The notes beneath the pieces were generated by a model. It searched no databases, had not been told where the DNA came from, and worked only from the letters and a program-made list of their open reading frames with translations. Shown here piece after piece: positions 4,076-7,832 of a stretch of DNA of 44,782 bases. Where the stretch lies: NCBI GenBank assembly GCA_038063995.1, contig JBBTUA010000006.1:1-44782 (forward strand). Direction: 5' to 3'. The DNA comes from Patescibacteria group bacterium (lineage in GTDB: Bacteria > Patescibacteriota > Minisyncoccia > 2-02-FULL-40-12). The position numbers were made by a program, and so were the translations under genes. The stretch's first letter is position 1. Every line of letters starts with the position of its first letter.

Positions 4076-4699
4076 ATGAGGATTAATCGAGTAATCCGAA
4101 CTCTCGTTACTTCTGATTTTTTGTTGATCTCTGGTTTTGCCGTTTTCGGTCCGGTTTTTGCGGTTTTCATCACCCAGAAAATTGAAGGAGGAACTCTGGC
4201 GATCATCGGCTTCACCGCCGCCATATTTCAGATTTCCAAATCGGCTCTGCAAATTCCAATTGCCAATTATCTTGATAAAAACCACGGTGAAAAAGATGAT
4301 TTTTATTCTTTGATAATAGGTTCGTTTTTAATTGCGTTCGTTCCATTTCTTTATCTTTTTGCCTCTAGGCCTTCCCATCTTTATATAATTAACGCTATTT
4401 ACGGCATCGGTGCGGCGTTTGCCATTCCGCCCTGGAACGCAATTTTCACCCGCCACATCGATAAAATGCAGGAAAGCACTGATTGGGCCGTTGAATCTGT
4501 TTCGATCGGCATCGGCGCGGCTTCTGCAGCGGCAGTCGGCGGAATCATTGCCGATAAATTTGGTTTCCAAGCCGTCTTTTTTATCGCCGGGATCATAGCA
4601 ATACTCGGTGCGATAAGCCTGACCAGAATTTATTCGAGTCTGATGGAAGAAGTTCCCCGCGGCCAGGTTTTGCCGGAGCCAGGCAGAAAGCATAATTAA
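4076..4699 (+). CDS. Half-size (about 6 TM) MFS transporter
   Basis: 207 aa, hydrophobic helices, MFS-like GGIIADKFG and YLDKNHG motifs. Confidence 0.75.
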   Translation: MRINRVIRTLVTSDFLLISGFAVFGPVFAVFITQKIEGGTLAIIGFTAAIFQISKSALQIPIANYLDKNHGEKDDFYSLIIGSFLIAFVPFLYLFASRPSHLYIINAIYGIGAAFAIPPWNAIFTRHIDKMQESTDWAVESVSIGIGAASAAAVGGIIADKFGFQAVFFIAGIIAILGAISLTRIYSSLMEEVPRGQVLPEPGRKHN

Positions 4700-4703
4700 T
4701 GAA

Positions 4704-4927
4704 CCCCGTTAGAAGCCGCCCTAACGGGTTAAACGAATGAAGCATCAAATATATAATAACCATCATTCTGCGCATAAAACTAACAATGTAGACTGCGCAG
4801 TCCCGTTAGAGGCCGCGAGTGCCCGCCCCGTACGAGATAGAGTATCGCTGCGAGCCCTCGCGATCTCGTTCGGGGCCCGCAGCGTGTCTCTGCTTCTAAC
4901 GGGACGAAGCAGCGACTTCTAACGGGA
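4704..4927. mobile_element. Nested palindromic insertion: outer CCCCGTTAGAAG...CTTCTAACGGGA, inner 4801-4904, innermost 4826-4875
   Basis: TGAA direct repeats at 4700-4703 and 4928-4931. The inner copy matches the murG insert. The innermost 50-bp CCCCGTA...TTCGGGG hairpin is flanked by CCCG direct repeats. Confidence 0.85.
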
Positions 4928-6642
4928 TGAATCCCGAAATCTCGAAAATTTTTCAGGAAATGGCCGTATTGCTGGATATGAAGGGAGTGGCTTTCAAACC
5001 TCGGGCCTATGAAAAAGCGGCTCTTATAATTGAAAACTTGAATGAAGATGTCGGTGAGATCTATAAACAAGGCGGCCTAGATGCTTTGCTTGAGATTCAA
5101 GGCATCGGCCAGGGAATGGCGGAGAGGATCGAGGAATATATTAAAACCGGTCATATTTTGGATTACGAAAAATTAAAGAAACAGATACCGGTTGATGTAA
5201 GCGGATTGACTTTGATCGAAGGCTTGGGGCCGAAGAATATTTACAAGCTTTACAAAAAACTCGGGATTAAAAGCGTTAAGGATCTTGAAAAAGCGGCAAA
5301 GACAGGGAATCTGCGGGGCCTTGCCGGATTTGGCGAAAAATCAGAACAAAAAATCCTGAAAGGGATAGAATTTTTAAAAGTCGGACAGGGCCGTTTTCTT
5401 TTAGGCAATGTTTTGCCTTATATAAAAATAGTCATAGACCGTCTTAAAAAACTGCCTTATGTGGAGCAAGCAGTGCCGGCCGGTTCGATAAGACGAATGC
5501 AGGAAACAATCGGCGACTTGGATATTTTGGCGATTTCCAAAAAACCCGAAGAAACGATTGAATATTTTGTTTCAATGCCGGAGGTAAGCCATATCTACGG
5601 AAAAGGCCCGACTAAAGCCAATGTGCGGCTGAAAAACGGAATGGAGGCTGATTTAAGAGTTTTGGAGCCGAAGTCTTTCGGCGCCGCTTTGCAGTATTTT
5701 ACCGGAGACAAGTATCATAATATTTCTTTGCGGGAAATTGCCGTAAAAAGGGGCTATAAGTTAAGCGAGTACGGACTTTTCAAAGGGGAAAAGAGAATAG
5801 CCGGCGAAACAGAAGAAGAAATTTATGAGAAACTTGGCCTGGAATGGATTTCGCCGGAATTAAGGGCTAATTCAGGAGAAATTGATGCGGCTCGGCTCAA
5901 AAAGCTGCCCGATTTAATAAGGTACGGCTCTTTGAAGGGCGATTTGCAGGTTCAGACGGATTGGACCGACGGACAGCATTCCATAAAGGAAATGGCTGAA
6001 GCAGCTAAAAAATACGGATTAGAGTATATTGTGATAACAGACCACACCAAATCTTTGGCAATGACCGGAGGGCTTGATGAAAAGAAGCTGTTGAAACAGA
6101 TGGCCGCGATTGATGAAATCAATCGCGAGTTAAAAAGTTCAAAGTTCAAAGTTTTGAAAGGTGCAGAAGTCAATATTTTAAAAGATGGCAATTTAGATAT
6201 AAAAGATGAAGTCTTGGCTAAACTTGATGTGGTTGGCGCGGCGGTTCATTCAAACTTCAATCTTTCGGAAGAAGAACAGACGGAAAGGATAAAAGCCGCT
6301 ATGGAAAATCCGAACGTGGATATAATTTTCCATCCAACCGGAAGAATAATCCATAAAAGGGAGCCTTATAAAATTTCTATTGACGAGCTCATAAAAACAG
6401 CCAAAAAAACAGGAACGGTTTTGGAAATTGACGCTTATCCGAATCGGCTTGATTTAAAAGATGATTACATAAAAAAGGCGGTGGAGGCGGGAGTTTTGCT
6501 TTCCATTGATTCAGATGGCCATAGCATTTCCCATTTTCAGCATCTTGAGTTAGGAATCGCCCAGGCCCGCCGCGGCTGGGCCGGGAAGAAATCAGTTATC
6601 AATACCCGAAGCTGGGAAGATATGCTTAAATTATTAAAATGA
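4927..6642 (+). CDS. polX: DNA polymerase X family with C-terminal PHP domain
   Basis: HhH repeats, AGSIRR, GDLDIL, YFTG motifs; PHP motifs ITDH and IDSDGH. Confidence 0.93.
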   Translation: MNPEISKIFQEMAVLLDMKGVAFKPRAYEKAALIIENLNEDVGEIYKQGGLDALLEIQGIGQGMAERIEEYIKTGHILDYEKLKKQIPVDVSGLTLIEGLGPKNIYKLYKKLGIKSVKDLEKAAKTGNLRGLAGFGEKSEQKILKGIEFLKVGQGRFLLGNVLPYIKIVIDRLKKLPYVEQAVPAGSIRRMQETIGDLDILAISKKPEETIEYFVSMPEVSHIYGKGPTKANVRLKNGMEADLRVLEPKSFGAALQYFTGDKYHNISLREIAVKRGYKLSEYGLFKGEKRIAGETEEEIYEKLGLEWISPELRANSGEIDAARLKKLPDLIRYGSLKGDLQVQTDWTDGQHSIKEMAEAAKKYGLEYIVITDHTKSLAMTGGLDEKKLLKQMAAIDEINRELKSSKFKVLKGAEVNILKDGNLDIKDEVLAKLDVVGAAVHSNFNLSEEEQTERIKAAMENPNVDIIFHPTGRIIHKREPYKISIDELIKTAKKTGTVLEIDAYPNRLDLKDDYIKKAVEAGVLLSIDSDGHSISHFQHLELGIAQARRGWAGKKSVINTRSWEDMLKLLK

Positions 6643-7832
6643 GATCGTATAGAATAATACTAGCTGGCGGCGGAACTGGCGGCCATATCTTTCCGCTAGT
6701 CGCAGTTGCCAGAGAACTTAAGAAAAAGGCCGATGAAAAAGGCTTGAATTTGAAGCTTTTGGCTGTGGCTGAAGACAATATCTGGAGAAATGAATTTGAG
6801 AAGGAAGGCATAAACTTCAAAAGGATTTTTGCTTTGAAATTGCGCAAAGTAGAAGGAGGCCGGATTAATTTCTTAGCCTTTTTTGTTCTTCCTTTTACTT
6901 TGATTCAGTCTCTTTGGCTTCTTTTTTTATTTATGCCTGATCTCGTTTTTTCAAAGGGCGGTTTTGCCTCTGTTTTTCCTTCTTTGGCCGCCTGGTCGTA
7001 TTTTATTCCCGTATTTATCCACGAGTCGGATTCAATACCCGGTAAAGCAAACATTTTGCTTTCGAAATTCTCCAGAAAAGTTTTTATTTCTTTTGAAAAT
7101 GCAGCCGGATATTTTCCGGCTCCAAAAACAATTTTAAGCGGCAATCCAGTAAGAAAAGAAATATTTGGCGGCGACAGATCGCAGGCTCTGAACCGCTTTG
7201 GTTTCGGTCCTGATAAAAAAACCATTTTGTTTTTGGCCGGAAGCCAGGGTGCGGCATTTATAAATAATTTGGTAATCGATAGTTTGGTTCAGTTAGTAAA
7301 GGAATTTCACCCCGTTAGAGGCCGCGAGGGCCCGCAGCGTGCCTCTGCCTCTAACGGGGTTCAGATTATTCATCAGGCCGGAATAAATAACTTTGAACAA
7401 ATGAAAAAAGAACTTGAGCAGTTAAAACGGGAAGGGGAATCAAGCTATGCGGCTGATATTGAAAAGAATTATCGGCTTTTTGGCTTTTTAAGCGAAGAAG
7501 AATTAAAAGACGCTTTTGCCGCAAGCGATCTTATTGTAAGCCGCTCCGGTTCTAATATTTTTGAGATCGCCGCGTTGGGTAAGCCTGCAATCGTTATTCC
7601 TTATCCTTATTCTGCCGGAGAGCATCAAAGGCAAAATGCTATTGAATTTGCGAAGTTTGGAGCAGTTGTTCTTGAAGAACAAAACCTTAAAACCCATATT
7701 TTAATTGATCAGATAAAAAATCTTTTAAAGCCGGAAAACTATTCGGCTGTAAGCCAGCAGATAAAAAGCTTTGCGAGAGTTGAAGGCGGAGGAATAATCG
7801 CCGCCGAAATATTTGAATATTTAAATATATAA
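6639..7832 (+). CDS. murG: MurG glycosyltransferase with an 18-aa palindrome-derived insert
   Basis: GGGTGGHIFP, KGGF, HESD, GNPVR, GSQGA, HQRQNA. Confidence 0.93.
   Translation: MRSYRIILAGGGTGGHIFPLVAVARELKKKADEKGLNLKLLAVAEDNIWRNEFEKEGINFKRIFALKLRKVEGGRINFLAFFVLPFTLIQSLWLLFLFMPDLVFSKGGFASVFPSLAAWSYFIPVFIHESDSIPGKANILLSKFSRKVFISFENAAGYFPAPKTILSGNPVRKEIFGGDRSQALNRFGFGPDKKTILFLAGSQGAAFINNLVIDSLVQLVKEFHPVRGREGPQRASASNGVQIIHQAGINNFEQMKKELEQLKREGESSYAADIEKNYRLFGFLSEEELKDAFAASDLIVSRSGSNIFEIAALGKPAIVIPYPYSAGEHQRQNAIEFAKFGAVVLEEQNLKTHILIDQIKNLLKPENYSAVSQQIKSFARVEGGGIIAAEIFEYLNI
7310..7359. mobile_element. 50-bp in-frame palindromic insertion with 4-bp TTCA duplication
   Basis: CCCCGTTAGAGGC...GCCTCTAACGGGG flanked by TTCA at 7306-7309 and 7360-7363. 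Removing 54 bp restores EFQIIHQ. Confidence 0.9.

Follow-up and report, generated by a model that had tools for sequence, protein, structure and literature searches.

Three tiny, gene-less inverted-repeat elements are stacked inside one another between an MFS-type gene and a polX/PHP gene, with murG next, in the genome of a very small groundwater bacterium. The elements are likely moved by a GIY-YIG nuclease, and new copies likely land by preference some 23-27 bases in from the end of an element already in place; taken whole, this is the reading towards which we lean slightly. The window, i.e., the whole stretch of DNA that was analyzed, is the 44,782-nt contig C6 of the 395-kb assembly G000, which is 85% complete. 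The genomes of relatives measure 0.4-1.4 Mb.

The existence of the three-layer nest is confirmed. The initial annotation had described three palindromic elements inserted into one another at this position, and had named mis-assembly as a finding that would undo the claim. All three layers are present, each with its own target duplication, and the nest is not mis-assembled: a 193-nt contig (4731-4923) from run X1, a possible source of this DNA, and a 187-nt contig (4731-4917) from run X4, which belongs to another study, both cross the nest with 0 differences. This check used unbranched assembly-graph contigs, not raw reads, and no one contig covers the whole 1.2 kb. The strict nested pattern gave 0 matches in the reversed-pattern controls, run on 105 and 401 genomes.

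Anatomy of the stack and of its family

Table 1. Positions in the window of the stack, its target duplications, and the neighboring features.
Feature	Position	Strand	Remarks
MFS-type gene	4076..4699	+	ORF; Pfam MFS_1; upstream of nest
13-codon frame on old polX start	4699..4740	+	MNPVRSRPNGLNE, then stop; outer element not read through
Left TGAA duplication, outer element	4700..4703	+	Single TGAA in empty alleles
Outer element (O class)	4704..4927	.	Ends CCCCGTTAGAAG / CTTCTAACGGGA; AT-rich core; 115 bp when empty
Left 5-bp duplication CGCAG, middle element	4796..4800	+	Perfect CGCAG/CGCAG pair around a middle-type copy in G004 C5 (L032)
Middle element, 50-bp murG-type hairpin	4801..4904	.	TCCCGTTAGAG...TTCTAACGGGA; split after base 25
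Left CCCG duplication, inner element	4822..4825	+	
Inner element	4826..4875	-	Same 50-bp family, reversed; end variant CCCCGTACGA / TCGTTCGGGG
Right CCCG duplication, inner element	4876..4879	+	
Right 5-bp duplication CGAAG, middle element	4905..4909	+	One change; same change in G004 C3
polX/PHP gene, from rebuilt ATG	4927..6642	+	ORF; Pfam DNA_pol_B_thumb, HHH_8, PHP
Right TGAA duplication, outer element	4928..4931	+	
Stand-alone 50-bp copy in murG	7310..7359	.	ORF, Pfam; in frame; TTCA duplicated; reference copy

The stop codon of the MFS-type gene (TAA, 4697-4699) overlaps the original polX ATG (4699-4701), and the same TAATG junction is found element-free in the relative G007. The outer element inserted on this start codon; its last base and the duplication together rebuild an ATG at 4927-4929. 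The nest itself is non-coding, in an assembly whose ORF coverage is 89% by a crude ORF call. A promoter within the outer element was considered and rejected, since 4600-5000 holds no sigma-70-like match; the same interval gave no terminator match, and 4600-5050 no match to Rfam. In two other genomes (G005 and G003; loci L037 and L040) the MFS-polX junction holds unrelated inserts of ~1.5 kb and 154 bp, respectively.

The third, outer copy, for which the initial annotation gave no coordinates, is the TGAA-flanked element of Table 1. Uninterrupted copies of its class measure 115-117 bp, and one, a 116-bp paralogue, lies on contig C9 of the same assembly. The middle layer is, as proposed, a murG element split by a 50-bp hairpin; with the inner element removed, it is identical to the murG copy at 45/50 positions and to the copy in a G004 composite at 47/50. 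Because it is flanked by a 5-bp duplication, the middle insertion adds 55 bp, not the 54 bp that had been implied. The inner element (CCCCGTACGAGAT...ATCTCGTTCGGGG) is 50 bp long and, with its CCCG duplication, makes a net insertion of the 54 bp described, although a 5+49 reading is formally equivalent at that single site. Its fold is non-random (z -3.5), with 3/200 shuffles equally good.

The ends common to all three layers are YCCCGWWMGA...TCKWWCGGGR. The inner hairpin had been assigned to a second subfamily; what stands of this is an alternative end pair, ACGA/TCGT in place of TAGA/TCTA, as the reverse complement of the inner element aligns gap-free with 21 other 50-bp copies of the murG family, to which it thus belongs in reversed orientation. 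The terminal inverted repeats have 13-bp arms with 95.5% of cells paired. In the alignment of 50-bp copies, 6/13 end pairs covary, in every case as Watson-Crick pairs; the slid controls of this test are lenient, because the structure was taken from the same sequences. The pattern CCCCG[TA]A...T[AT]CGGGG matches six times in the same genome, and four of these matches are other hairpins of 30-35 bp without duplications. As in MITEs, there are filled and empty orthologous sites, dispersed copies, and no gene.

Among 128 short elements, 75 are flanked by exact 4-bp duplications, 12 by near-exact ones, 4 by exact and 2 by near 5-bp duplications, 5 by 3 bp, and 30 by none. All 75 scored exact 4-bp duplications fit YNNR, and 5 bp are duplicated at one CTGCG site. 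An exact 4-bp duplication also flanks 21/30 members of the outer class and all three inner-type copies in the same genome. The 4-bp rule of the initial annotation therefore applies to the inner type and to the 75 short elements, but not to the middle layer with its 5 bp.

Multiples of 3 were found for the total length added in 56/79 non-coding short copies, in 4/7 automatically flagged nests (the flag missed some), and in 10/13 nest clusters. The multiple-of-3 rule that had been put forward thus describes the short families; the 55-bp middle insertion departs from it, as does the outer class (only 7/30), in which 28/30 members carry ATG or GTG at one end. Because the 56/79 hold even in non-coding DNA, the multiple of 3 is a length trait of the short family, plausibly retained since copies of such lengths can persist within genes. 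Open frames contain 42/128 short copies, the murG copy being an in-frame example. The 41/42 multiples of 3 among coding copies were not used, as this class is defined by an open frame and the count is near-circular. The idea that the terminal base pair is copied from the target flanks was dropped, the counts being mixed and yielding no rule.

Several individual copies are unusual. Family ends bracket a predicted tRNA-Ala(cgc) in a 108-bp stretch beside a tRNA-Pro, with no clean duplication (L430:1500-1607, G062 C14). Two loci in G009 (L556:3027-3419 and L578:8846-9057) hold tandem family members with only a shared 4-bp duplication between them; the rebuilt target was therefore reused. In the genome of the stack, an inner-type copy (C3:57374-57423) interrupts a long terminator-like hairpin precisely at its tip.

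Targets of nested insertions

The initial annotation suggested that these elements favor each other as targets, and enrichment, reused host sites, and a fixed distance from the host end all support it. We searched an order set of 105 genomes with exact-end patterns. Short matches numbered 253 and those of 102-132 bp 389, each length class being spread over 51 genomes and including a few partial matches. Eleven strict nests were found in 8 genomes, where 0.36 were expected genome-wide and 1.7-3.8 under non-coding nulls, in which the non-coding share (8-12%) was assumed from the crude ORF call of G000. With G000 and G004 omitted, 9 nests stand against 0.34-3.5 expected (P at most 0.01), a P value that overstates the significance, like the others for nests, because kin are not independent. 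Nests are 3-30 times commoner than under the nulls, and only about 2.6-3-fold commoner under the harshest one. A phylum-wide draw had nests in only 3/401 genomes, and two scans of viral contigs found 0.

The same host sites recur. The site after base 25 of the middle element, occupied here by the inner element, is also filled in G005 C1 (in opposite orientation, in frame in a gene) and, by a different 47-bp hairpin, in G009 C6; the chance of one word among 6 being hit in this way is about 0.03. The CTGCG site of the outer element holds 5-bp-duplicated inserts in G000/G004, G005 C7, G056 C14, and G015, for which the chance is about 0.005 when three of the genomes' inserts are counted.

The distances from nested inserts to the nearest host end are also clustered. 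The test used 21 nests, after those that fell outside a 13-43 window or had no recognizable host end had been dropped; 12/17 distinct sites lie 23-27 nt from the end, versus 5.2 expected (best-window P 0.0007). Both inner junctions at the polX nest fit, at 25 and 23. The signal persists without the two sites of the polX locus (10/15, P 0.005) and is weaker in long hosts (7/11, P 0.03). A purely end-anchored rule was entertained, but it is weakened by a second hotspot 46-49 nt from the host end, formed by two independent inserts (G074 and G087). Purifying selection on the AT-rich outer core could shape the distances.

Nested and stand-alone copies differ in their target words. Exact duplications around stand-alone copies are T..A words in 59/69 cases, whereas among 23 hand-picked nests with exact 4-bp duplications only 4 are T..A words, against 10.2 expected after allowing for what the hosts offer, and 12 are C..G words, against 4.5 expected. 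Inside the hosts, neither pairing nor GC content set the nested sites apart (P 0.18 and 0.39). Targeting of hairpin tips by stand-alone copies found no support: strong stems occur at 0/23 coding and 2/47 non-coding empty sites, compared to 5% and 3% in controls. In a metagenome/class set, 8/22 nest clusters are without any duplication; 90/136 loci had been dropped before counting, as they held no complete host with its own duplication.

Nests could also form if insertion occurred at YNNR words regardless of what surrounds them, and if old elements, in a genome with ~89% coding DNA, were simply the sequences whose interruption costs least. This safe-haven explanation, which we consider unlikely, would fit the drop of the enrichment to about 3-fold under non-coding nulls, the unrelated hairpins found within the same hosts, and the absence of a special pairing or GC signal at nested sites. 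It does not account for two host words being reused across genomes, for nests avoiding the T..A words preferred by stand-alone copies even where hosts offer them, or for the clustering of distances at 23-27 nt, and one nest (that in G005 C1) lies inside a coding gene. Tolerance in junk DNA and the amplification of ready-made composites also contribute to the nests.

Some hosts took up more than one insert: single outer elements with two separate inner insertions occur at L178 / L353 (G056 C1) and at L614 (G087 C45). Hairpins unrelated to the family lie in the same host elements at L562:18083-18231 (G009), G028 C7:104093, and G087 C30:6899; one of these hairpins occupies the CTGCTGCG site that the middle element uses in the polX nest.

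A GIY-YIG unit with the same ends

The same ends also enclose a unit of ~280 bp that codes only for a GIY-YIG nuclease of ~85-95 residues; it is the only coding member of the family that was found. A search for family ends 245-275 nt apart gave matches in 40/301 class genomes, some by chance, and in 21/105 order genomes, 19 of which were judged coding from sequence. The 44 distinct units carry exact 4-bp duplications in 23 cases, near-exact ones in 8, and 5 bp in 2, with none in 11; a start codon is rebuilt by 35 of the units, and the frame is intact in 32. The unit protein matches PF01541 (E 8.8e-17) and is closest by sequence to UPF0213 and by predicted fold to UPF0213 and Slx1 (pLDDT 84); a single-sequence structure model reached a pLDDT of 57, i.e., low confidence. 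In 36/36 units, Tyr, Gly, Arg, His, and Glu positions are conserved without exception. The protein looks nearer to the Slx1-like/UPF0213 branch than to cd10448; the GIY-YIG tree is poorly resolved (94 columns), and no claim of co-evolution rests on it.

A single genome, G009, has coding units of either end type present in the nest. Units and gene-less copies co-occur, in 17/19 genomes with units versus 43/86, although here, too, kin are not independent. Judged from sequence, the GIY-YIG nuclease is the likely mobilizer of the family. We know of no strand-transfer chemistry for a lone GIY-YIG domain.

In the mechanism that we propose, the nuclease would bind the folded ends of a resident element and cut the target a short fixed distance inside, with a stagger of 4-5 nt, and host repair would finish the insertion. 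Stacks at the same spots in related bacteria would then likely arise because the nuclease tends to place new copies ~25 bases in from one end of an older one. Since a stack keeps its outermost ends, it would move as one unit. The likeness of CGCAG to the CNNNG motif of I-TevI was not used, as the two marked cuts of that enzyme are 2 nt apart in the part of PMC12774661 that was available. More broadly, and tentatively, the family may represent a class of GIY-YIG-nuclease transposons with two target modes, rebuilt start codons and positions ~23-27 nt inside a resident end, in which self-targeting would give rise to new composite mobile members.

Terminal inverted repeats combined with duplications of 4-5 bp are the usual signature of DDE transposases. 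The elements might accordingly be ordinary MITEs moved in trans by another transposase, of DDE or HUH type, with the GIY-YIG gene as a captured passenger. Besides the signature, two observations are in keeping with this: the assemblies of the nest-bearing G000, G004, G005, G056, and G085 hold no GIY-YIG unit with these ends, and Y1/RAYT-like genes are present in G009 and G087, which have six PF01797 matches. We nevertheless consider it improbable. None of these six Y1 genes is bracketed by family ends, and PF01797, a profile for Y1 and not DDE enzymes, was absent from the assemblies of G000, G004, and G066. In the 755 kb of G009 that were examined, the family had no member of 300-2900 bp, and over all the gaps searched the same ends enclosed no IS with a known transposase, only GIY-YIG units. 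The conserved ORF fills the unit end to end. Finally, other GIY-YIG homologues have inverted ends of their own: of 14 more distant ones in five genomes, 9 are bounded by different inverted ends with scores of at least 11, and 3 of these are flanked by 4-bp duplications.

These distant genes look like sister families. One small GIY-YIG gene (L593:1440-1753, G004 C2) has its own terminal inverted repeats and a TATG duplication; L595 and L601 have a TTGA duplication, and L598, L599, L600, L603, L605, and L606 also have their own inverted repeats. The RAYT-like Y1 genes are frames of 221-273 codons, and one of them (L587, G009 C1:261809) is flanked by short palindromic repeats of its own.

Among the GIY-YIG units themselves, one (L398:1495-1782, G009 C1) is without its own start codon and uses the ATG of the host gene. 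Its stop codon, a TGA, comes from the target duplication and overlaps the rebuilt host ATG (ATGA), an arrangement that suggests translational coupling. Three near-identical units lie within 3 kb at L532 (G038 C27:7680-10563), and at L335 a 68-bp hairpin has inserted at the start codon inside a unit.

History of the layers and comparison with known repeats

The initial annotation had proposed a comparison with close relatives for intermediate states, and empty, two-layer, and three-layer states were all found. G007 and G001 have an empty junction that shows one TGAA and no excision scars, and outer plus middle without the inner element occur at two unrelated loci in G004. So far, the inner insertion has been seen only at the 4826-4875 locus. 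The outer copy is mosaic in structure. Over bases 1-69 it agrees with the copy on C9 of the same genome at 65/69 positions, versus 56/69 for G004, whereas over bases 70-97 it agrees with the G004 composite at 27/28, versus 11/28 for C9. Considering this mosaic together with the outer-plus-middle copies in G004, whose middle element matches at 47/50 positions, the middle layer most likely arrived as a ready-made module.

Outer plus middle exist elsewhere as such a unit, and the layers were therefore not all added one by one at this locus. Composites occupy several unrelated target sites; one of them recurs at 6 loci of G087, and a cluster in the metagenome data comprises 16 members. The middle element would first have entered an outer copy somewhere other than the polX locus. 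The module would then have passed into the outer copy of this genome, probably by recombination, and either before or after that copy landed on the polX start; the inner element would have been added last. A derivative at L522 (G015 C6:5956) runs from the left end of an inner element to the right end of its outer host, with TGAA on both sides at a start codon, as if a nest had moved using mixed ends.

Because the outer copy is a mosaic, recombination can evidently copy inserts between hosts. Recombination or template switching between similar hairpins might even have built the stacks altogether, with the recurring nests being copies of a few old events. We think this quite improbable. The mosaic itself (its left part 65/69 to C9, its right part 27/28 to the G004 composite), the middle layer common to G000 and G004, the six copies of one composite in G087, and the 8/22 clusters that show loss of host sequence rather than duplication would all be expected from it. 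However, the same host site holds inner elements of different families, lengths (47, 50, and 62 bp), and orientations, each with a clean duplication, and recombination between copies would not generate target duplications. Lastly, relatives with the same repeats are present in the same sequencing runs and only contigs were compared, but that similar repeats from co-occurring organisms were joined into an artefactual nest has a negligible probability, given that unbranched contigs from two studies cover all inner junctions with 0 differences, that every layer has its own duplication, and that similar nests occur in other genomes.

No paper on this element family was found in the literature searched, as judged from abstract openings and with few subscription papers covered. 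Bacterial MITEs such as Correia/NEMIS, RUP, Nezha, and Chunjie, as described in the portions available of PMC10969869 and PMC3184786, are likewise gene-less, with terminal inverted repeats, target duplications, a hairpin fold, and filled and empty sites, often beside gene starts. In contrast to them, the present family has copies as small as 47-50 bp, is GC-rich, and has a GIY-YIG nuclease rather than an IS transposase as its coding partner. In the same portions of these reviews, nesting is not mentioned in PMC3184786, nor CPR in PMC10969869. Rickettsia palindromic elements, of about 150 bp, also lie in frame in housekeeping genes (PMC10969869), as the family does in murG and, as a double insert, in a gene of G005. 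Going by that partial description, they differ from the family in that the latter has defined ends, 4-bp duplications, and a candidate mobilizer, and its outer class is not frame-preserving.

REP, REPIN, and BIME sequences are, like the family, short hairpin repeats linked to a small partner with a single gene (PMC3116915, PMC3733652, from the parts available), and family copies, like REPs, insert into or beside existing repeats. Unlike in the REP/RAYT system, the partner is not an HUH/Y1 enzyme and the copies have target duplications. The family's partner gene is moreover a dispersed, duplication-flanked unit, whereas RAYTs are described in those parts as single-copy and not self-mobile (PMC3116915, PMC3733652). 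Since its partner is no RAYT, and since no IS with a known transposase was found to share its ends, the family was filed neither as REP/REPIN nor as an IS-derived MITE.

Insertion into resident repeats has precedents in the sections available of several papers: REPINs (PMC3116915), REPs in other palindromes (PMC3733652), IS1397, IS621, and IS1594 in REPs (PMC3184786), and IS30 and IS911 next to their own inverted repeats (PMC9333248). In these cases, as in ours, a mobile element prefers resident repeats or its own ends as target. Those elements, as far as described there, are kilobase-sized IS with DDE or IS110 enzymes, and IS30 abuts the end (PMC9333248); by contrast, the gene-less 50-bp copies land ~23-27 nt inside it, with a normal duplication.

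Among pairs of an enzyme and a repeat, Ssn/NTS comes closest (Chenal et al. 2025, PMC11893778). In the material available from that paper, the Ssn/NTS/SRM system likewise combines a single-domain GIY-YIG protein of ~90 residues with inverted hairpin repeats that are also dispersed, SsnA cuts single-stranded DNA a few bases from its own hairpin, and the IS-like layout leads its authors to propose a mobile origin as a hypothesis only (PMC11893778). Its repeat sequence differs from ours, and target duplications, start-codon landing, and nesting are unreported in that material. Neither Patescibacteria nor CCCGTTAGA was found in 12 of the 14 supplements of PMC11893778.

Because nesting of small repeats is already known from REPINs and from IS in REPs, the stack alone would be a curiosity; its value lies in what it says about the insertion step of the element family. 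How a lone nuclease of ~90 residues could act as a transposase can be tested directly on three predictions: the spacing from resident ends, the change in target words from T..A to C..G, and the 5-bp stagger tied to a specific site. In the literature searched, no such role for a lone GIY-YIG nuclease was found, other than as the hypothesis of Chenal et al. in the accessible part of PMC11893778. If true, this role would help to answer a question of long standing, the origin, spread, and diversification of bacterial palindromic repeats shorter than 100 bp, and it would define a very small site-directed insertion enzyme and an accretion-driven evolution of the smallest known elements with terminal inverted repeats. 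The stack and its family also show how such elements persist in very compact genomes: they land in frame, on rebuilt start codons, or inside themselves.

The genome of the stack contains a further hairpin family, 39-41 bp long (CCCCCATAG...CTATGGGGG), with four copies at C1:17779, C2:4933, C5:15081, and C9:25322. The copy on C9 lies in frame within a 466-codon ORF with a GIY-YIG domain (UvrC-like).
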